A stretch of 64,000 nucleotides of DNA from Eledone cirrhosa (lineage: Eukaryota), in contig OZ024754.1 in assembly GCA_964016885.1 (NCBI GenBank), positions 30,194,001 to 30,258,000 on the forward strand. The letters are read 5' to 3'. The notes below the pieces were generated by a model that made no database searches, was not told the origin of the DNA, and saw only the letters and a program-made list of their open reading frames with translations. Both the position numbers and the translations under genes were made by a program. Below are positions 4,987 through 44,136 of the stretch, piece by piece; positions within the stretch are counted from its first letter, which is position 1; each line of letters opens with the position of its first letter.

Positions 4987-5826
4987 TAAGATGTTGCAAA
5001 TTAATACCGGTGTGAATTCAATCATGGAACTGTCTGTTGATTGTCTCTGTTCCTACCTCCATTAAAATTATTCTATAAATTATCAGCCACACTATTTGCC
5101 AATTCTTATGGTTTTCCTTTTTTTATTTTTTATTTTTTATTTTTGTCTTTGGGGTTTTTTTTTAAACCAGATTCGTTCTCTGAAGAATTGTCTTTTCTTC
5201 CATAGCAAGTTGTTGGTGTTAATAGTAAAGACATAAAGATAAACAGACAAAATGAACGAATCAACCATAATTAGATGACAATTCCTCTCTGAAATAACCA
5301 AACCGTGAAATTAATTTAGCGTTTATATAATAAATTTTCGATCGCTGTTCTCCGCGACTGTGCCTCCGCCATTTTGTCCGCAAGGTGTAGTTGCGATACA
5401 CCCCCTAAAACTGACTTGTACAGCCTGCTGCCTCCTCCTTTTCCTCTCCCTCCTTTTCCCTTACTTTCTCTATTTCACTTTTTAATTTCTTTCTTTTTCT
5501 ATGTTTTTTATATGTAAACATAAAACTCAATTGAAATTTGGTGAATAAACGGAAATAATAGATTAATCATTTTGTATCTTTTGTTTACCGATTTTTGTTT
5601 GTTTGTTTTTTGCTTTTTTTCGTGTGTTTATTTCGTTGTAGGGTGGAGTGGGGGCATTTTTTCTGTTCGTTTTCAATAATAATTTCAAAACTGTTCTTTA
5701 TGTCTGTGTTCTGTTTTATTCTTTGACAGATATCAAGTCGGTTGTTACATATGTGTTTGTGTATAATCAAACTACACAGTACTATGAAGAAATATATTAG
5801 TTTAACGCTTGAATTAATTGGGAAAA

Positions 5827-10572: not shown

Positions 10573-11499
10573 AATTGAGTAAACTAATTGTAGGGTATTT
10601 AGTGTCTCTTTTACGCTGCTATTTATTTATGTTTTTCTATATTTCTATATTTTTTTGTTGTGTATATTTTCCAATCACAGTTCATCCTCTTAATAAACAT
10701 CGTTGTAACATCCTTATATATTTGTTATATTATATCTGACTGTCACCGCTATTGAACTCTTTCTTCCATTAATAAACAATCACTTTAAAGCTATTAAACC
10801 CTCCACATATTCCTCTTTCTTCCTTCCGTTCATAATCAGATCTATTATACTACAACGCATACACAAAATTTTTGCCTTCCATAAAGAAACGTTCACTTCA
10901 AAACCTATTTCTAATTAACGTATCGTTGTAAAGGCTTAAAGTTCAACTTTTAGATTCTAAAAATTAATGAATAATATTTATTCCTTCATTCTTTTTGTTT
11001 TCATTCTTTCTCTCTCGAGCTAAAACGCATTGATTTCTTGGAGAAGAAAATGTATTCCATGCACTCAATTTTATTTTCTTTCATCCAAGTTTATGAGTGT
11101 GTTTTGTAGTACACAGTTTGAATAATGAATACAATGATGAATAAAGAGAGCAGTTTAGCGGGAAGATTAAAGTTTGGTTTTTCATTTAAGTTCTTAGCTT
11201 CCAAAATCCATTAAATGCTGAGTTTTTAACAACAAGAATTTGTTATGTGACTCACGGTTGAAAAGATCCGCGTTAGCAAGAATATGTATAATGGACGCAA
11301 GAATGGTTATGCGGTTAAGAAGTTGGCTTTGCAAACATGTAGTTCTATATGGAATCCCATTGCGTAGAACCTTGCGCAAATAACTTCTAGTATAGCCATT
11401 GTTTTAAAACATCTTATGAGTGGTATTTGGTCGGCAGAACTTAAATGAGAGCCCGTTGTATATACGTGCGGGTGTGTGTGTGTGTGTGTGTGCTATATG

Positions 11500-21850: not shown

Positions 21851-24800
21851 CCTTCACCTCTTTATGGGGTATGGATATAACAGTAAAGCAAGAACATTAT
21901 TATCACTATTGATAATTCTTTCTAGCATTGGTACAAAGCCAACAATTTGGGGCAAGGGGGAAAGCTTACTATATCAACCCCAGTACCTGACTGGTACTTT
22001 TTTTAAATCGACCCTGGAAGGATGGGCAGAGGTGACTTCAACCGGATTTGAACTCGGACTATAAGAGCCAGAAAAATACTGCTAAGCATTATTCCGATGC
22101 TCTGACAACTCTGCAAATCTATTGCCCTTTTATTACTATTAATAACTATTATTAATCTTTGATTAAGAAAGGAAATACTAACAAACAAAAATTTACAAAA
22201 TTAAAAAATTAAACGGAATTTTTCTTTTTCTCTAGATATATTCATAATACAATATTATGAAACTAAGAAAGAGGGAAATGAAAACAATATGAGAATGGTT
22301 AGATAGAAAGCAAAAATAAATATGAAAAGGATACCAAGTTTGAATTATCCTTCATTATTTGGTTAAATGTTGCAGTTAAAAAAATACTATTTTTTATATT
22401 TTTTATTTTGTTTTTAATTTTGAAAAGGAAAGGAAAAAAAAAAGCCCAAATTGACAATTTTATAATTTTAAAATAATTAACCGGGAGGTTTTAACAAATT
22501 GCGAGAGAGATTTCAAAATTGTACAGAAGCTGTAAAACAGTTTTTTTTTTTTTTATTTAAAGTCAAACTGGCATGTTTCTGACATTGCTTAAATGGTGAC
22601 ATTAAACCAGTAATTAAAAAAAAAAAAAAAGAAGTATTGAGACTGTTTAAGGCACCAACATCCAAAGTGATTGGTATCCAGCAGCTGTGTACCATAGCAT
22701 TTGTGATGGAGCAAAACACCTACCTTAGTTAACAAGTACGTGTCATTCAAGTAGATTTGTTTGGTTTTTTTGTTTAAACTTGTGGTACAAATGGAAGTTG
22801 TTTTAACAGAAAAAGGAAAGGAAAGGATAAAAAGGTTGCATTTAACTGAAAACAAATCTGTATTCTATAATGAACAACTTTGCCACATAAAGGGATAGGA
22901 TGTCAGGAATACATTTTAAAAATTTACTATAACTTTAATAATATACTTTAGGTTAGTTTTCAAAATATAACCTTCATGAGGAACAGGACTTTTAAACGTG
23001 CATATATATATATATATATATACATATATCAACTGACTTCATTAAAATTTAGAATGAACCACTTTGGAAGTGGTATATCATACCACTTAAATGGCAAGAT
23101 AAATAAACACAGCTATATATCATACAAAGTCATTTTCTAGGATTTGAATAATTCGCTTAACCCATTTTAATTTTTTTTTTTAAATCTACCCTTCCTTGTT
23201 ACCACAGTTGAAATCTTATTTGAACTAAGTGTAATGAAATGGTATTAGGAAAATATGATTCACAAGACATTGTTGGAAAATGTATCACATAATGTATAGA
23301 AAGTGGAAATAAATTTAAAAAAAAAAAAAAGAAAAACATGTTCACGTCATCTAATTTGGAAAATAAAATATTTTTGTAGCTATATCTCTCTAAATGTTGG
23401 TTGCCACTGGACTCTTTCATGATCGAATTTCTGAAATATACTCTATTTCAATTAATTAATGAAGAATTTTGAGGAATCTACTATAATTACTATTTCCATT
23501 ATTAAAATAGTAACTTAACATATGATTCTTATATAAAATCCTAATGGAAGGTCTTAATTTAAATAGAAACCCTTTAAGTTGGGTGGTTTAGTTTCATAGA
23601 GTCAGAGCCAGTTTTGGCTGTGTTGGTATCAAATGAGTTTACTCATTTGAGGAAAATTATAGAAACTTAAAACACACCTTTTTAATCAAATAAGAACCTT
23701 TATTAGATTTTCTTCAACTACATATTTTGTTTAATGCTCAAAAAGAAAATGTCACTGAAGAATTCTGTACACGTGGCATACAGGAACGAGAAAATATATA
23801 TTTGGAACAGTTTTAAAAACACAACCTATTTGGAACATCTTTAATTCTTTAGTTCCTGCAATGCTTATTATTCTTGCTGATCATTAAAAAAGCAAATGTA
23901 AGGCTTTTTTTTTTTAAATAATTGTTTGTTGATAATGTCTTAAATGATTAGATATTTAGAAAGAAAAATAAGACTTAATATGAGAAACTGTTATACTGAC
24001 ATAAGTTTATTTCATAAAAAAAAATTATATTAGGACCAGTCAGATGTAGTATCAGACAAAAATAAAAATAATAAAAAAAAAATCCTGTTATAACTGAAAA
24101 AGCAGCCAGTCTTTATACAATAAACTAAAAAAAAAATGCATTCATATCTATTTATTAGGGTTAATGATAGATTGTTAAAGGTAGAGATAACTAAAGTAAA
24201 AGTCATAAGATAATCTGCCAAATTCTCTTCACCATATCTTTTACAACTGACAGCTGAACCTGAAAGACTTTGATGTAGATATAAAGCTGTCCAAACAAAG
24301 GTAACACCATTCCAGATAGCTACCCAGAAGAAAACGTTTTGTTGTTGTTTTTTTTAAATCCATTCATCCATACAGTTACGGCAGAAAGCAGGTATGTGGT
24401 TTTAAAATAATGATTTGTTTGGTCTCTGTATCTAGTAATAATGCAGTTGACAGATACCTGAAGACAGCTAGAGAGAGATATGAGCAGTAAGGCGGCAGAA
24501 AATATAGTCTAACTTAGAAAAATAAAGACTTCAATGTTGGAAGATATACCAAGATATACCAGCACACAATTTAGCTACAATGGTCAATGTACTTTATATA
24601 TCATCTCTGCAATATTTTAATGGCAGAGATTCAGTTGAGTTTTGTTTTGTTTGTTTGTTTGTTTGTATTTAAATTTACTTTTTGTTACAATAAGTAAAAA
24701 AAATAAAATACTGGCATAATAATAATAATACAAACAATTTAAACTAGAACCAATGGCAAATGAAATTTAAAAAAAATATTTTCAAAATAAAAATGTAATG

Positions 24801-25336
24801 CAAACAGGAATGAATACCAGCATAAGAGTAAGAAAAGTGTTCATGAATGCATATTAAAAAAGGCTGTCAGTTGAGCATGGTGCCAATAGCAACATGAACA
24901 ACTTGGTTTTATGTATCTACACACATTCAAACACAATCAAAACCAGCCACACACAAACATACATACCTATCTTTTAGTTCACGTGTCCATACAAACTCTT
25001 GGTTTTTAAATTTTCAATTTTAAATATAATTTCATATTTCATATATATATATTTTTCTTTTTATTATAGAATTTTATCATCTCGTTCAAACTGACTTGCC
25101 AAAAAAATCAGTGAATGCAATTGATTATTGGGTTAGGTAAGATTATATCTGCAGAAGGTGGACTAAGTTTGTGAACATCGGAGAAAGCAGCAAGTTATTT
25201 TTTTTTTTTTTAACAAAAAGCATTTAAAAAAAAAAAAAAGTTTTTCCTTTTCTTTGTTGTAAGTTGGATACATAAGTGGGGAGAGGGAAGGAAAAAAATT
25301 TTGGAAAAGAATGAGAAAAATTGATGCGAGTCCCAA

Positions 25337-25759
25337 TTACAACATGGTACAGGCTCCTTTCTTCTTCTTCTTTACTTGAAGGGCTGCCCGAGTAGCTGTT
25401 TCAAACACTTCTCTCACGCCATCTTTGGTCTTAGCAGAACATTCTAAATAACTATAGGCATTGATCTTCTCCGCCATGGCACGACCATCTTCAGGTCGGA
25501 CTGGTTCCTGCTTCATCTTCATAAGTTCTCTCTTTGTATTTTCATCATTTCGTAGATCTTTCTTATTGCCAACCAAAATGATAGGAACGTTGGGACAGAA
25601 ATGTTTCACTTCGGGGGTCCACTTCTCGGGTATATTTTCCAAACTGTCTGGACTATCAATAGAAAAGCACATAAGAATCACATCTGTGTCAGGGTAAGAC
25701 AAAGGTCGTAACCTATCATAATCTTCCTGTCCAGCAGTATCCCAGAGAGCCAATTCAAC
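25337..25759 (-). CDS. RhoA: RhoA distal alternative terminal exon (aa 53-192, ends [11 protein letters not shown])
   Basis: Acceptor TTTTTCTTTTCTCTAG|GTT in phase 0. Same 423-nt length as the proximal exon, with intact motifs and CaaX. Sequence recalls Aplysia rho ([31 protein letters not shown]). Confidence 0.95.
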
Positions 25760-27480
25760 CTAGAGAAAAGAAAAATACAAATTAATTATTTCGAAAATAA
25801 ATTGATAAAATTATTATAGAAATATTGAACAAATTTGAAATCTATTTACTTTTCTTATGAAAAGCTGCTACAATGATTACATTATACAAATTAAACAATC
25901 AAATAAATTGAGTAAATTATCCTTGATTGCAACAGTCATACAACAGATGCAAGGTTCAATTCTTGCAGGTCACTGGCCACATTTTTACCAACTTCAAGGG
26001 TAATTTACCCGATTTATTCAACTATTTTATCGTTCATATATGTATTATGGCAGCTTTTCATATGAAAAGCAAATAGATTTCAAATTTTTTAAATAGATAT
26101 TGGGGGGGGGGGGGGCTATGTTACAATATAAAATGTTAAAGGTCTCAGTTACATAAAACAGCTTCTGAGGATTTACTTGTAATCTTTTTCTTTCAAAAAA
26201 AAAATAAATAAATAAATAAAAAAAAAAAGGAAAAAGAAAATCGGTTGAGGGAACAAAAAAGATCAACCTTTTCTTTCCATACGTAACCGTCCCTGGTTCC
26301 ACAATATTAAGCTGTTTATAATTATCTAAAACCATTCCATCACAATCCCATGTAAGAACCTTTAAGTTATCCAAATACCAACTAGTTTATTGAGAAAGTA
26401 ATAATTGTTTCTACTTTAGGCACAAGGCCAGCAATTACTGGTACTTTATTTTATCGACCCCATAAGGATGAAAGTAATAATAAACTTGTCCAAGATGTGG
26501 ATTATTTTCAAAATCATTTGAAAATTTATAAACTGTTTTTCATTAGCAATATGAAAAATGAAATGCTTAAAATGTTATACAAGGTCTCTAGCATTAAGTT
26601 TCCACTAATGTTACAATGCATTTTATTTTACATTTATTTTAAAATTCCTTAATACATCTGATACCTAACTGGTTGGAATCACCCCTGGTTAGTTCTAAAA
26701 TACTAAGCTGTTTGCATACATGAATCGAGTTTCAAGGAAGTTTTTAAATGCCTTGTGACAATATAATTTTAAATGATGAGAAGCCCAAACAATGCACTCA
26801 AGGAATGAAACAAGTGTTTTATTCAAAGCTTTGTCTTAAAAGATCCATACCAGTGAATTGCTATAAGATCTTAGAGTGGTTAACTGATGAAGGCCTTTTA
26901 AGACAAAGTTTTGAATAAAACAAGTTTTACTTTATATGCATTTAAGTGTTTATATTTATATAAAAACATTGAGTTATGTTCCAAACATCAGTTTCGCAAA
27001 AGTTATATTACTAATTTCCATCAAATTATAAAGTGATTTGAAAACTATCAGCAGTCTTTCAATAGATTTAAGAGAAGGGTTAAGCCAACATGGTGAATAA
27101 GTTGGTTCTTTCCCAACTTTATTTCCTAATCTAACCTTGAGACTAAAATAAAATTCAAGTCAGTTGATGTTTTATATTATAAACAAGTGTAAAGTTAGTA
27201 ACAAGAAAGTATAATTTAGTATCAGATTTAGTGGTCTAGTAGTATTACCCTTCGTTCACAAATGAAAGGTACCTAATTGAAGCCCAGTTGGGGATCATGT
27301 ACACACCCAACCATATGAAACATCAGAGTTGGAGATCAAATTGACTGGAAATATCAAAATGTAGTGCTTGGTGCTAGGAAGGGCTTCCAACCATAGAAAT
27401 GTCACAAGTGGACAAAGGTCTCATCAGATATACAATCCCCCTGGTGCTGATGCCATGATCAAATGCACACAAAACACAAT

Positions 27481-27690
27481 TTAACCCTTACATTTACATT
27501 ATATATACTATATTTTCATGATAAATGCTTTACCTTACATAATTATCTCAATATCAAAGCTGAGATTTTGATATTTATTTTGAGAAAAATACCTTAACAT
27601 AAGTATGACCGACCAGTTACAGCCAATTTGAACAGAAAAAAGTGAGAGAATTCTGACCAGATATGGCCAGTTTAAATGCTAAAGGGTTAA
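27481..27690 (+). mobile_element. piggyBac-like MITE (TTAA TSD, CCCTT...AAGGG)
   Basis: TTAA-CCCTT...AAAGGG-TTAA. Other copies at 29099-29285 (inverted), 45961-46135, 59211-59415 and 63086-63312. Confidence 0.8.
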
Positions 27691-29304
27691 GGAAGGGCAT
27701 CCATCCATAAAAACCATCCCAAAATGTAAAATAGTCATGGTCCTCTGACCTGTCAAGGGAGGCCTGTAGCTCAAATTATGTACTACAAGGTCTGTAACAG
27801 ACCATCCAACCAGTGCCAACATCAAAATGCAGATATAAAATGATATTGACTATAAATACCTAAATGTTTCATATCTAAAGATGAGTATTATTACAATCTT
27901 AACTTAGCTTTTAAATAGAATTAATTCAGTTTCTAAATGTCAACTAAACATCAATGATTAGTTTACTTATACATTTGGAATTATTTTAAAATGAGTAGCA
28001 AGACAAAGGTTCTCTTTGAAAGTACAAAAATAATGACTACTCATTTAATATGGGGAAAGGGTTATATTAATTTTGTTTAGACTAAGGAAACTAGGACTAA
28101 CTTATAAACTTAGCATTATTTCTACCACTATTACCATCCCACACTTTGGTGACAGACCATGGGGTGGAACAGATAAAAGTGTATGTTTCAAACACACTGC
28201 TCATGTTAAAGTTCCATACTAACAACCACCATGTAACTTTCACTCTTTATTCCTCTATTTGGTTCTCTATTACACCTCACTCTTCATTCCTCTCCCTGCT
28301 TGGGACAAGAGAACCTGATAACCTAACGTAGTAAAGATTATGCCTGTATGTGCTTCAGCCATGATAAAATGTGCCTTATATACTCAATAGAGGCACAAAA
28401 CCTGCAAAAATATCCAAGCAAAATGTGCTTAAACTAATCAAGGGGAGCAGTAACTCCAAATAAGTACTCAGTAACAATACATACAAAAAGGGGATGGGGT
28501 CAATTAACGGATCACAAGGAAACTGCTTCTATTGCCAATACTACTTGCTGGTTATAACTCCTGACAGAAACATCACAATAATTGCAAAATGGTAGTGCTG
28601 GTGCCATAACAAAATGTGCCCAGGATACTTTAACATGGAAGTGGTGGTGTCACAAAATGTACCCATTACACCTTGTAAAGTGGTTGGCAGTGGGAAGGCC
28701 ATCCAGCCAGAAACCTTGCCTAAATGGAACCAGCAAGACATGGTCATCTGATTTTTCAGTCTCAGTCCACACAACCCATCCAACCAATCCCAGCATGAAA
28801 AGCAGGCATAAAATTATACATTAGTCCTGAAATCTAGTTTAAAAGATAAGGAAAGCTAACACCCTCTTGTTATACATTAAAACTTAAGAGGGCAACATCA
28901 TTGATGTATTGTACAAATCAGTAAACCATGTTTAGACTGGTAATGCTGGGTAGAGAATGCAGCAAAATACCTGAAATCTCTAATTGGCATAAAACCTGTG
29001 TATATTCAGTTTAGTATACGTGCACTGTATCCCCTGTATCTTGAAAGAGGCAACTAAGAGTTGGCACGAGGAGGGCATCGAGCTGTAAAAACGTTGCTTT
29101 AACCCTTTAGCATTTAAACTATCCATATCGGGCCAGGATTATCACCTCTTTCTGGCCACTCATACTTATGTTTAAGGTATTGTTCTCAAATCATTAAAAT
29201 CTCATAGATTCAATATTATGCGAGGTAAAACCATTACCACGAAAATACAATAATAAATAGAGTAATGCAAACACTGAAGGGTTAAAAGGACCCTCCAGAT
29301 GTAC

Positions 29305-29339
<35 letters not shown>

Positions 29340-30441
29340 CATGGTGCCTGCAAAGCTTACACCAGGTTCAGCAGAAAAATGGCATTAAAATAATTGCGAC
29401 TACAGAATTTGAGTGAAAATAGTAAGTCATAGCTAAAATATCACTACTCTCTTCAAATTAACATTGTATGTATTCCAAATAGAATTTATGAGCAATACAT
29501 GGAACTTGCCCAGTCTTGTCTCAGACCACAAGGATTAAGCCAGTAGACAAAATATTTAAAACAAATATATTTTATCACTGCTAGTCAAAATAATTTGTAG
29601 GCGTATTTATTAGGCTATTTTGTATACTGTATGTTATGGTCAATGAATAAATTACCAGTCCAAGGAGGTGGACTGGCAGAATTGTTTGAAAATCAGATGG
29701 GATACCTTGTGGTATTTGTTCCAAATGTGTTGACAGTCGATCGACAAGATCCAAGAACTCATTCGCTTAAGTGGGATAGAGATCGTCAAATCGGACCATG
29801 GAAACAATGTTTCTGTTGGTCTTTTCAGTTGCTAATACTATCTGCCAGTAGCAAGTCCAGTAAAGGGCCTTGCTCAAGGACCGGGAATTGAAATTACAAC
29901 CTCACAATTCTCTAACCACTCAGCCACGCACCTTCACTCCAAATGTATGTTCACTTTAAATTCTGCCTGTCACCAGAAAAAAATCGTGGCCATGTTAGGT
30001 CAGAGCCCCATCATTAAAAACGCCCCTTGATAAAGATGGAAAATACAAAAATATTTGGGATCATTAAAAGTTGCTAAAGTAACATATTGTCCTCATATTA
30101 CTTCACCGTTCTTTATCCTATTTATTATCTTGGCATTGTTACCAAACATGAATTGTCAGGCTTTCAAATAAAACTTGTTTCTTATAATTGTACCTCCTAC
30201 CATTAAAACACCCTTGAGAACTATGTAACCCTACACAAGGACAGCTAATCAATAGTTTAAGACATGAAATTATCACAGCAACAATTCTAAAAAGCTGAAA
30301 TAAAGTATTTCAATTAAGACAAAATTGAGGACAAAAATAGCCAAAAATTAAAAAAAAAATTATAAACCAATTTTGATTAGTGAAGAGGTGAATGATGGAT
30401 GAATTAAGTGAAAAAACAAACATTAAATATCAGCCAAAATC

Positions 30442-30447
30442 TTTATT
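30442..30447 (-). terminator. Candidate polyadenylation signal for the proximal-exon isoform (~2 kb 3'UTR)
   Basis: AATAAA followed ~20 nt later by a GU/U-rich element (TGTTTGTTTTTT). Alternative AATAAA hexamers at 30541, 31784 and 31890. Confidence 0.45.
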
Positions 30448-32439
30448 TGGAGCACATGATACAGGAATTCTTAGAATCTTATCTACATTATAAGAATATA
30501 ATAAACATGAAAATAACAGATGGGAATGTGTCGCACAAGTTTTATTATTTCAATGCTGGAATATGAAACTAATCAAACATTTGGCCATTTAACTAACACT
30601 ATCACAGTAATAACATGCAACATTCTAGATATTTCTTTAAGTTAACCTAAATTTAAATAAAATAATGAATTAACTCTATGTCCTGTACCACATGAAACAG
30701 CATTAGCAATATATTAAGTACAAAACAGCAATGACTGCATCACATTACAAATTTATGTTACTCTATCGCAATTCTTCACAATGATCTGTCCACTAGAAAA
30801 GATACTATAAAGATTTGAATTTACAAACCCTTCTAGATATTTTCAGCTTAATAACTAGACTTAAAAATTAAGGAACCAACCTGCCGTTAATACGGATACG
30901 TTTGAGATTAAACCTAAAATAGGCCATTTATTAGTGTTAACTTCTAACTTTAATGCAAGAGTTATCCAGACAAAAGTTTATAAGAAACTTAAATAGTTGC
31001 CGTTTTATTTATATATATATATATACATACACACACACAAAGTGGCATCTAAAGTACTAAGCATAGTAAGCAGTACACCCCACCCAACAAAAAATACTAT
31101 ATATATACTATCAATCATTTCAAGAATTCGTAACACCACGACTGGCATACATAGAAGGAAGACAGAATCATGAACTTCATTCTAAAATTCTGCAGAATAT
31201 TACAATCCAAAAAGTACCATTACCAGCAGCTATATTAGATAAAGACTGGCTTCTCTTTAATTGGCGCTAAGTAGAAAATCTTATATAATTTCATAAAGTA
31301 CTAAACGCATTTCTGTCGAAAGAACTGTCCAATATATATTGCAGAAGGAACAGCATGACTAATTACCAACTACGTATTGCAAGAGCATTATTACTAATAT
31401 AAATATATATACACACACATTTATGCAAATTATACACGAGTATGTATGTATTTATATATGTATTGTATTATGACCAATGTTTCAGATTTAAAGCACGAGT
31501 GCATGAGAGTTTTTCAACCAATGTTTAAGGTCTAAATTGCATGTGTGAGTGTGTGTGTGTATATATATATGTATATATATATATATACACACACACATAT
31601 TTATTTCAAGTTAAATCACAGTTAAAAACTGTTTTCAGCTCCCCAACCAGCCATAATTAGCCAATGAAAGAGTTAAAGAGCAAATCTAGAGAAAAAAAAA
31701 ACATTTAAAAAAATGCCCAATTCTATCACAACTTAGAACTGATTCATTATTATTATATATATATATATATATATATATATTAGTTTATTCAACAGTCGAA
31801 AACGTCAATTTTTTCCCCACAGAAATCAAGCAATGCGGCAAAGACCAGTGTGTATGTTATTTCATGTTATATAAAAAGGTTATACAAAGTTTATTTAATC
31901 ATTTTATCCAGCAGAATTTCTCAATGCCTGATCATAACGTTCCAACCTTAGCACTATTATAATTATTATAATGTTTAAACAAAGCTGAAAAATATAGTAC
32001 CAGCAATACATATATATATATATTGAAATATGTTCAGTTTGAGCTCTGCTGCTCACTTTTCCTCAGATTAAAAACAAGACAAAATGCAACCAAATAATGG
32101 TTGTTCCAATTTAATTCACCATAATAAAATGAGGGCTGGTAGTTTTTTTAGTTTTTTTTTTTTTAAGTAGCCAATTTATATAGCAACATGTTTTTAGTTT
32201 AACGAGAGGAGTAAATGGAACAGTTGCAGTTATGGAAAGCCATCTTTCAATAGGTAGAAAAATCTGCAAATGTCTTATTGGCCAGAATCTCAAGTCATTG
32301 CAGTTATGAAGAAACCATTTCTCGGGGACACAGTTGGACAATATTATTTCAATGAACAACTGTGAAAATGCCAAGAGAAACATAGAAACAGAATATATCA
32401 TCATCTTTCAGCACGGACTATAAAAATATGACCACCTTT

Positions 32440-32862
32440 TCAAAATAAGATACATCTTCCTCGTTTCTTCTTTTTCACTTGTAAAGCTGCTTTAGTTGCC
32501 GTTTCAAACACCTCTCTAACCCCCTCTTTAGTCTTCGCTGAACATTCTAAATATGAGAAAGCACCAATTTTTTCAGACATTGCTTTGCCATCATCAGCTT
32601 TGACCGGTTCCTGTTTCATCTTAGCCAATTCCCGTCTTGTAGTATCATCGTTGCGCAGATCTTTCTTGTTTCCGACTAAAATAATGGGAACATTGGGACA
32701 AAAATGCTTCACTTCTGGTGTCCACTTCTCTGGAATATTCTCTAAGCTGTCAGGACTATCAATAGAGAAACACATTAATATAACATCTGTATCGGGGTAG
32801 GAGAGAGGTCGTAATCTATCATAATCTTCTTGACCTGCAGTATCCCATAAAGCCAATTCCAC
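32440..32862 (-). CDS. RhoA: RhoA proximal alternative terminal exon (aa 53-192, ends [11 protein letters not shown])
   Basis: Acceptor (T)n AATTTCAG|GTG in phase 0. Open frame [19 protein letters not shown]...GNKKD...ECSAK...CILF-stop with intact G3/G4/G5 motifs and CaaX box. Confidence 0.95.
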
Positions 32863-39100: not shown

Positions 39101-40976
39101 TATAGAGGTGAACTATAGACAATATTTGTGAAAGTTTTAATGGATTTACATAAGATTTTAAAGTGGCTATGACTCATTATTTTGATAAAAATACTGAATA
39201 AGCCAACTATGTGGTTATAAAAATATTAACTGATTTACAAACACAAACATGTAATTCCAACAAAACCAACTTTAGTATCAAACTGTCAAATTATGTTAAT
39301 TGAATTCAAAATATCAAAATTAAACAAAAGAGGGTCTGAATTAATGTAGTTTGTAAATTTAAAAGAGCTTGTGTGATTAGGTGACAACATTACTAACATT
39401 TAGTAGTTTTTATCAATGATAATATTAGGCTGACAAACCATCAGTTTCCTCAGAACGGTGTTAATGTATCAACTTATGTGGTTATTCTTTTACTTGATCC
39501 AGTCCATGCAGGGACAGACTGCAAAGGTTTAGGAAATGACTTGTATACAAGGCATACCTCATTACTTTCAAATATAAAAACAGATTCATTAACTACTTAA
39601 GAACGAAGTCGTATTTCACGTTACAAGTGTCACCAGTCCCATATTTCAAAATCAAACGCTATAAAATATTCACTAAGGGAGAAAGACTGACACACCACAG
39701 TAGTAAGCCAGTTATATCTGCTCCACAGTACATCTAACCTAAAGGTGTCAGGTACTCTATAATCTACTGATACCAGCTACATCTGCTTCAAAAAGTTACA
39801 ATATCACCAACTGTCTAAAATTTAATCTAAGTGTGTATTACAAATGTATCCTATTATTACTGAGATGGTAGTCATGCAACAAGGTCTGATTGACTAAGTC
39901 CAGCCTATGAAGAATGTATGTATGGACCCTAACTATTGAGGGAGTCGTAGGGGTGCCATATTGACCTAGGGCATTTTTTATACTTGGCAGAGCCCATCTC
40001 CTCCCCAGGTCTGAATACAGCAGATTTCTTCCAGAGAAGGAGAGAGAGTTAGAGTGAGAAAGGAAATGAGAAAAAGATATAGAAGAATCGACTGCAGTAC
40101 TAGACAGGTGTTTCTTTTTCAACCTTAAATGGATGAAAGGCAAAGTTGACCTCGGCAGGATTTTAACTCAGAATACTGAAAAGCATTCTATCCAACGTTT
40201 TAACAACTGCCAATTCACTACTTCCATATAAAGAATAGTTCAGTAGAAAAAGCAGAAAAAAAAAGGTCATGATGGAATGGACCCGTAAAGTCTTCATGAC
40301 AACCTAAGTCTTGGCTTGCAGCAGAGAGAGAATGGATGTGGTAAACTGCTCTCTACTGCAATACCCTCACGAGCCTAGAAGTAAAGACATTTACAACCCA
40401 AGTCCTTGCTTGCAAAGATATGTGGAGTCAAGTGGTACACTGCTTGACTCTGCAGTGTCACAGGATCAGTAATAGTAACACTGTATCAAATATGTTAAGG
40501 AAGGAAAAAGTTAACCTAGATACAACTTGTACAGAATTAAAACTATTTTTGCTTAATGTTATCTTGCCAACTTGAAATATATATTTTTCAACAAGCTTCA
40601 CTCAGTTCCATTAAAAAAAAATTTTCACTGAGAAGACTGGAAGAATATGCCCAAGAAACCACACCTTAACCAGTCAAAATTAAAACATCTTCAGTGATGA
40701 TTATATATACATCTGCTTCAATAACCAGGCGTAATTTGATCTTTCCACTCATTAACAGCAGTACCTAAATTTGACACACATGCACCTACTTTTCAATTCT
40801 AACCTTCCTTGACCCCCAAAACCTACAATAAAATCTATGAACCATCCCAGAAAAATCAATGAAAATAACTACCTATTCATTTTCTCTAGAGGTATCAAGT
40901 TCACAATTGAAATTCAATCTGAACCATGTTTCCCTGATATTATACACTGCTTGAGAGCCCAAACTATACCACCTCA

Positions 40977-43908: not shown

Positions 43909-44136
<228 letters not shown>

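Follow-up and report, generated by a model that had tools for sequence, protein, structure and literature searches.

The DNA analysed here, called the window throughout, is a 64,000-nucleotide (nt) stretch of the genome of Eledone cirrhosa (contig OZ024754.1, positions 30,194,001 to 30,258,000), and its subject is a RhoA/Rho1 gene on the minus strand whose last coding exon is present in two homologous copies. A single exon 1, whose coding part (44070-43915) specifies aa 1-52 including the P-loop and switch I, lies upstream of copies A (32862-32440) and B (25759-25337), each of 423 nt including the stop codon. Both copies are preceded by a polypyrimidine-AG acceptor, and both acceptors are phase-0. 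The features of the gene, in window coordinates and with untranslated regions abbreviated as UTR, are the following:

43915..44084, minus strand: coding exon 1 of RhoA/Rho1; acceptor AG at 44086-44085, ATG at 44070, donor GT at 43914-43913
32436..32862, minus strand: upstream last exon A, aa 53-192; TGA stop at 32442-32440, followed by 4 nt and a splice donor
32430..32435, minus strand: splice donor of exon A (AAAG/GTGGTC), 4 nt past the A stop and joined to the B acceptor
31045..32439, minus strand: exon A's own 3' UTR in the read-through form; contigs of runs X14 (31045-31534 and 31792-32463), X1 and X5 run beyond the donor
25337..25759, minus strand: downstream last exon B, aa 53-192; TAA stop
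24394..25336, minus strand: 3' UTR of exon B, to the extent reached by contigs (an X14 contig at 24394-25185 plus X10 pieces)

Exon 1 joined to either copy encodes a protein with G1-G5 boxes and RhoA-type switch regions, with RhoA as its best PDB matches (E=1e-77) and a score above the cut-off of the small-GTPase model TIGR00231. The Rho insert, for which an excerpt of PMC8305018 gives helix limits of aa 124-136, aligns gap-free to human RhoA over that range, and both copies end in a polybasic tail and a CAAX box. A full-length match to exon 1 is found once among four matches in the 3.0-Gb genome and once in the window, where a search for a second or decayed exon 1 returned nothing better than E=1.1 (protein) and E=0.32 (DNA). 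Exon 2 is matched over its full length and at high identity by two of 17 genome matches, which are A and B. With one exon 1 in genome and window, the two copies are not tandem paralogous genes that each carry their own first exon. Partial Rho-family matches at 35-84% identity lie elsewhere in the genome (G000:C14:44943018-44943380, C21, C22 and C3), and none of them is a second RhoA.

Divergence of the two copies

Compared codon by codon, A and B differ in two distinct ways along their length. Across the 72 codons of aa 53-124, 37 are identical, 35 are synonymous and none is replaced, whereas the 68 codons of aa 125-192 comprise 26 identical, 24 synonymous and 18 replaced codons (from A to B: D125E, T126N, R128K, A132M, K140R, A141P, D142E, K145R, S148A, G152N, F154Y, E165D, K176R, R186K, R188A, I190T, L191M and F192L). 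This recount agrees with the original prediction, made from the letters of the window alone, which had placed about 35 silent changes in the first part and all 18 replacements in the second. Overall nucleotide identity is 76.1%, the longest identical run is 14 nt, and the proportion of synonymous differences (pS) is 0.75 for aa 53-124 and 0.73 for aa 125-192; where A and B encode the same residue, 63 of 122 codons are identical, where saturation would leave 53. Along the full length, silent change is close to saturation, and no similarity was found between the introns and UTRs that flank the two copies. The exon duplication is old, and A and B have not been homogenised in E. cirrhosa; gene conversion as the cause of the protein identity over aa 53-124 in this species is rejected by the pS of 0.75 and the 14-nt longest run. 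Over its tail half, A shares 97% identity with its Octopus bimaculoides counterpart.

The original prediction had also read the concentration of replacements in the C-terminal part as a special signal, and here it does not hold. The clustering departs strongly from a uniform null (P=6e-7), but it is ordinary when set against the pattern of the family. Human RhoA equals copy A at every residue of 53-124 in the PDB matches, and among 17 Rho proteins from other phyla, compared as 136 pairs, only 15% of the differences in 53-180 fall within 53-124, a segment free of differences in 19 of the pairs. Under this pattern, the probability that none of 13 differences falls in 53-124 is about 0.12, and the absence of change there is what RhoA normally displays. 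The part of the earlier interpretation that stands is the old duplication of real exons. What it overlooked is the layout of the gene, namely the shared exon 1 and the splice from A to B past the A stop, together with the age of the duplication and the asymmetry between a slow B and a fast A. Its suggestions that both exons are translated and that they present different "membrane-facing surfaces" may be right.

Splice layout and transcripts

Seven sequencing runs were aligned, all as contigs, and their RNA nature was inferred from exon-versus-intron depth: by this measure X14 was taken as RNA-like and X11, whose depth is flat and from which the window may derive, as DNA-like. Contig depths were not used for ranking isoforms, and the joints and differences given below are the best-supported ones listed. 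Among them, the joint from exon 1 to B (43915/25759) occurs in two of the four runs that span exon 1 (X14 and X5), and the joint from A to B (25759/32436) in four of the seven runs (X14, X1, X2 and X10), which come from three studies and three organisms. Both joints fall at predicted sites and are bounded by GT..AG. The A-B joint cannot be explained by the similarity of the copies, because it links the end of A to the start of B. It is absent from the joints listed for DNA-like X11 and for X5, and neither joint is among those listed for X9. RNA-like contigs cover A in X14, X1, X5 and X10. The rows displayed for E. cirrhosa do not include a joint from exon 1 to A, and isoforms of exon 1 plus A are present as database models in O. 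bimaculoides (P0048/P0287) and Mytilus (P0242). Relative to related species, the differences listed are silent at 21 of 21 sites in B and at six of seven in A.

Three messenger RNAs are indicated, one running from exon 1 through A into A's own UTR, one joining exon 1, A and B with B untranslated, and one joining exon 1 directly to B. Two features of the evidence weigh against this reading: the short sides of all joints measure 26-30 letters (26 for the A-B joint), below the tool's 31-letter mark, and the runs that supplied the contigs are only presumed to be RNA. We nevertheless hold with great confidence that one exon 1 and two duplicated last exons form a single RhoA gene. Homologous tandem exons behind a common exon 1 are the arrangement of tandem-duplicated alternative last exons; they are not strictly mutually exclusive exons, because the A-B joint is present in four of the seven runs. 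The end of the A UTR is inferred only, with candidate AATAAA signals at 31009, 30932, 30546 and 30447. Beyond the main A UTR, an X14 contig at about 10x intron depth covers window positions 29360-30645 and is possibly a longer form of that UTR.

An assembly or haplotype duplicate, or a dead pseudo-exon, would be expected to lie in tandem as A and B do, and nothing else speaks for it. The 76% nucleotide identity, the saturated silent sites and the dissimilar flanks all argue against it, the DNA-like run X11 covers both copies, and RNA-like contigs from other species contain both, with almost exclusively silent changes, which leaves this explanation with a negligible probability. The original prediction had likewise dismissed it and proposed an ancient duplication, and on both counts it is borne out by the saturated silent sites and by the orthologues and RNA-like contigs of both copies.

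Distribution and age of the duplication

A search for longer proteins returned 58 matches, of which 18 are mollusc, annelid or nemertean models composed of exon 1, an upstream copy and a downstream copy, in addition to a rotifer. Such fused models, of about 320 aa and unlike the A or B isoforms, are frequent among the mollusc entries named "ras-like GTP-binding protein RHO" in RefSeq/GenBank, where both isoforms are also annotated separately (X3/X4 in O. bimaculoides, X1/X2 in Mytilus). That the true product is a tandem GTPase of this length, with exon 1, a truncated A and B in frame, would fit the shape of these 18 models and a GT at the Q180/V181 boundary of A. The sole A-B joint among the rows listed, however, lies past the A stop, and the models cut A variously (after aa 114, 166, 169, 180 or later), as forced open frames would, so that we regard such a protein as very improbable.

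Other searches contributed octopus, cuttlefish and further mussel models, as well as two Lingula isoforms. The pair of upstream and downstream copies is present in 16 genera, represented by database models of molluscs, an annelid and a nemertean. Without exception across these 16, the downstream copy is nearer to the downstream copies of other genera than to its own upstream copy. Over aa 53-166, downstream copies differ from one another by a mean of 5.9 residues and upstream copies by 13.4, the former value being the smaller in 118 of 120 genus pairs. By these comparisons B is conserved across phyla and A drifts about twice as fast. The Rho of Aplysia (P01122) is of the B type.

The layout can be read by eye in gene sequences from supplement file 2 of a bivalve Rho survey (PMC4669188, parts 40, 41, 56 and 57). 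In the oyster CgRho-1 gene, a single exon 1 is followed by the upstream copy, in lower case at ~5125-5547, and then by the annotated last exon; in the scallop gene it lies at ~10913-11338, behind one exon 1 and followed by another B-like exon. Sections 9 and 12 of the survey's main text leave this copy unmentioned, and it sits unannotated in an intron. In the parts of the survey consulted, each gene is given one product, and different exons serve as the Rho of the two scallops. CgRho-2 of the same source was considered as copy A and rejected as a separate, divergent gene, and its expression data were not used. The two oyster CgRho-1 copies (~5125 and ~8385) appear by eye to be identical in DNA over their first ~165 nt and then diverge, which by the same inspection reflects gene conversion or assembly collapse, unlike the E. 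cirrhosa window and the scallop. Scallops apparently have three alternative last exons (P0229, P0235 and P0309; PyRho and CfRho in the supplement).

The number of duplications was addressed with two sets of approximately unbiased (AU) tests, from which rows that were long, redundant or unplaced had been excluded (17 in the first test and 18 in the second: rotifer, Lingula, Argopecten, mite, nematodes, flatworm and near-copies). In the second, on 128 columns, separate duplications per species (p=3e-7) and per class (p=0.007) are rejected, and a single duplication is allowed (p=0.29, or 0.11 with the copies as sisters). We place the duplication before the cephalopods and, likely, before the molluscs. 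Molluscs, annelids and nemerteans split ~500 million years ago, and the layout shared by oyster and scallop likely dates back more than 500 million years.

Several observations pull the other way. A cephalopod-only duplication is not rejected (AU p=0.07 and p=0.45 in the two tests), nor is a clade of the window's own A and B (p=0.24 in the first), and the free tree leaves most of its inner branches (34 of 54) open. The upstream copies need nine changes and form a single clade in 0% of 200 bootstrap trees, and the grouping of the downstream copies can result from slow evolution alone. Tandem whole genes are another source of fused models, as in P0293, P0312 and P0314 with their two P-loops, and the ~320-aa shape recurs in insects, corals, fish and a starfish. 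DNA sequence shows the shared exon 1 in E. cirrhosa, oyster and scallop; elsewhere, as in the annelid, nemertean, chiton and gastropods, it is taken from annotated models. Finally, exon 1 is followed directly by a B-type exon, without an upstream copy, in eight of ten intron-bearing metagenome loci (L014, L016, L018, L020, L024, L026, L027 and L029). These loci may represent losses or paralogues, and not every carrier of a B-type exon has the layout.

Taken at face value, these points would suit several independent exon duplications, for instance once in cephalopods, or in part tandem whole genes, with B close to the ancestral sequence. The third, B-like exon of the scallop implies that re-duplication happens, and tandem genes, the cephalopod-only clade and the scattered upstream copies are all accommodated. 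Against this stand the rejection of per-class and per-species duplications, which gene conversion would if anything have favoured, the same order of a variable upstream and a conserved downstream copy in 16 of 16 genera, and residue M132 of B, which appears derived rather than ancestral. We consider independent origins unlikely, and a single duplication in the lophotrochozoan ancestor probable from the sequence comparisons.

Two side observations belong here. Locus L041 of the metagenome scan combines exon 1 with an A-type exon, and no locus with both copies was found among the 42 loci listed of 80. A further set of ~320-aa fused Rho models (P0299, P0313, P0316-P0323 and P0326), from an adelgid, corals, a starfish, a wasp and fishes, probably reflects tandem genes that annotation has stitched together.

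Protein surfaces, proposed mechanism and known systems

The proteins ending in A and B would share their P-loop, switches and nucleotide pocket and differ in the insert helix (125-132), in 140-154 and in the tail. Within 140-154, residues 141, 145, 148 and 152 have helical spacing, and we take this segment to be alpha4. Four residues, K128, M132, R140 and R145, are present in the downstream copies of all 16 genera, and M132 occurs in only one of 16 upstream copies and in none of 18 outgroup proteins. A lysine or arginine precedes the CAAX cysteine in seven of nine upstream tails versus one of 19 downstream tails; the nine comprise one scallop tail (7/8 without it) and eight others, four of which were assigned by similarity. 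Neither A nor B has a second cysteine in its tail, so that no palmitoylation site is gained or lost. An excerpt of PMC4432619 reports that residues of the insert helix determine the effector specificity of Cdc42 for FMNL2. In the opposite sense, 13 of 16 A/B pairs show no difference in net charge over 123-154. On balance, we slightly favour functional divergence of the two proteins.

The main rival to functional divergence is that the two exons serve mainly to provide different 3' UTRs, and with them differences in stability, localisation or dosage, the proteins being equivalent and the changes in A tolerated drift. The variable sites of A are those of the family, upstream copies have almost no diagnostic residue in common across phyla, and both copies carry long UTRs that are partly conserved in relatives, with A able to borrow that of B. 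Alternative UTRs, however, do not require a duplicated coding exon, and they account neither for the retention of M132, K128, R140 and R145 by B nor for the consistent difference between the A and B tails. Such a UTR-only role is possible, and we favour it less than divergence of the proteins.

We propose that exon A acts as a stop-carrying cassette, its inclusion yielding protein A and its skipping protein B, through a regulated choice between the A and B acceptors. A device for mutual exclusion would be unneeded, because in a transcript containing both exons the A stop would keep B untranslated. Messenger RNA decay triggered by a downstream junction follows a 50-nt rule, and the A-B form would escape it because its junction lies only 4 nt past the stop. 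B would keep a constrained insert-helix and alpha4 surface (K128, M132, R140 and R145), and A would drift, mostly gaining a basic residue before the CAAX cysteine. Under the CAAX rule for geranylgeranylation, both proteins would be geranylgeranylated, and each would have its own effector or regulator preference and membrane affinity. A stop-carrying cassette that arose by one old duplication and yields two Rho proteins with the same switches and different surfaces is, in our judgement, the probable explanation overall. More tentatively, the duplication at the base of the lophotrochozoans may have created a one-gene splice switch (molluscs, annelids, nemerteans and brachiopods) that does the work of vertebrate RhoA/B/C, in which a frozen B offers a clade-specific insert and alpha4 surface to a dedicated partner beside a flexible, more basic A, with an optional N-terminal exon, which bears a cysteine, multiplying the forms, and with fused annotations concealing the whole for years.

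Among known systems, KRAS4A/4B resembles RhoA A/B in that a single small-GTPase gene carries two last exons homologous to each other, and KRAS exon 4B stays as UTR behind the 4A stop. CDC42, a Rho-family gene with two alternative last exons, is alike in layout only, and its alternative tail exons are short and have different lipid anchors. KRAS differs in that it swaps the end of the G domain and a tail with different lipidation, whereas RhoA A/B swaps 140 of 192 residues and has no palmitoylation cysteine; moreover, KRAS 4A derives from NRAS and the RhoA copy from the same gene. As far as the consulted part of PMC9882654 goes, the two KRAS C-termini have been retained for more than 450 million years, the choice between 4A and 4B is termed mutually exclusive, CDC42 and KRAS are the sole two of 167 human small GTPases with two membrane-targeting tails by splicing, and the nine human genes listed do not include RhoA. 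Vertebrate RhoA, RhoB and RhoC resemble A and B in having near-identical switch regions and C-terminal differences, but they are separate genes, each with its own exon 1; unlike such paralogues, A and B have the promoter region and exon 1 in common, and the choice is made by splicing. The schistosome proteins SmRho1.1 and SmRho1.2 also have near-identical switch regions, and an excerpt of PMC8670706 reports them to be seven residues apart and to bind HDAC8 and a formin, respectively; they differ at residue 33 and, as the products of two genes, were rejected as an instance of the same layout. Our literature search, with older subscription papers on Rho evolution outside its scope, returned no description of a RhoA gene with a shared exon 1 and two last exons. 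The layout and its age are unusual; the isoforms already existed in automatic annotation, and the C-terminal clustering is ordinary.

Among the processes driven by RhoA are cytokinesis, spiral cleavage and neurite retraction, and a single RhoA is ascribed to lophotrochozoans. If our reading is correct, two RhoA proteins have been kept separate in each of them over roughly 500 million years. Work on octopus, Aplysia, oyster and annelids that relies on knockdowns, antibodies or expression counts would then have pooled or missed an isoform, and a large number of ~320-aa database entries would be in error. A and B may also serve as a natural experiment, since identical switches combined with a different insert helix, alpha4 and tail could be used to test the roles of those surfaces.

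An additional exon (L093; G000:C14:30280839-30280875, minus strand) lies beyond the window, ~43 kb upstream of exon 1. It has its own ATG and encodes an in-frame N-terminal extension, MSRLLTCLRPTD..., identical to that of O. bimaculoides P0048. Short cysteine-bearing extensions also occur in Rho models of mussel, scallop, chiton, nemertean and beetle, and 32 of 46 N-terminal extensions contain a cysteine, some of these being redundant or doubtful; an isoform with N-terminal acylation is possible. The introns of the gene also contain short, high-copy interspersed repeats with very high contig depth, at 26399-26474, 40111-40174, 27620-27692 and 29097-29195.

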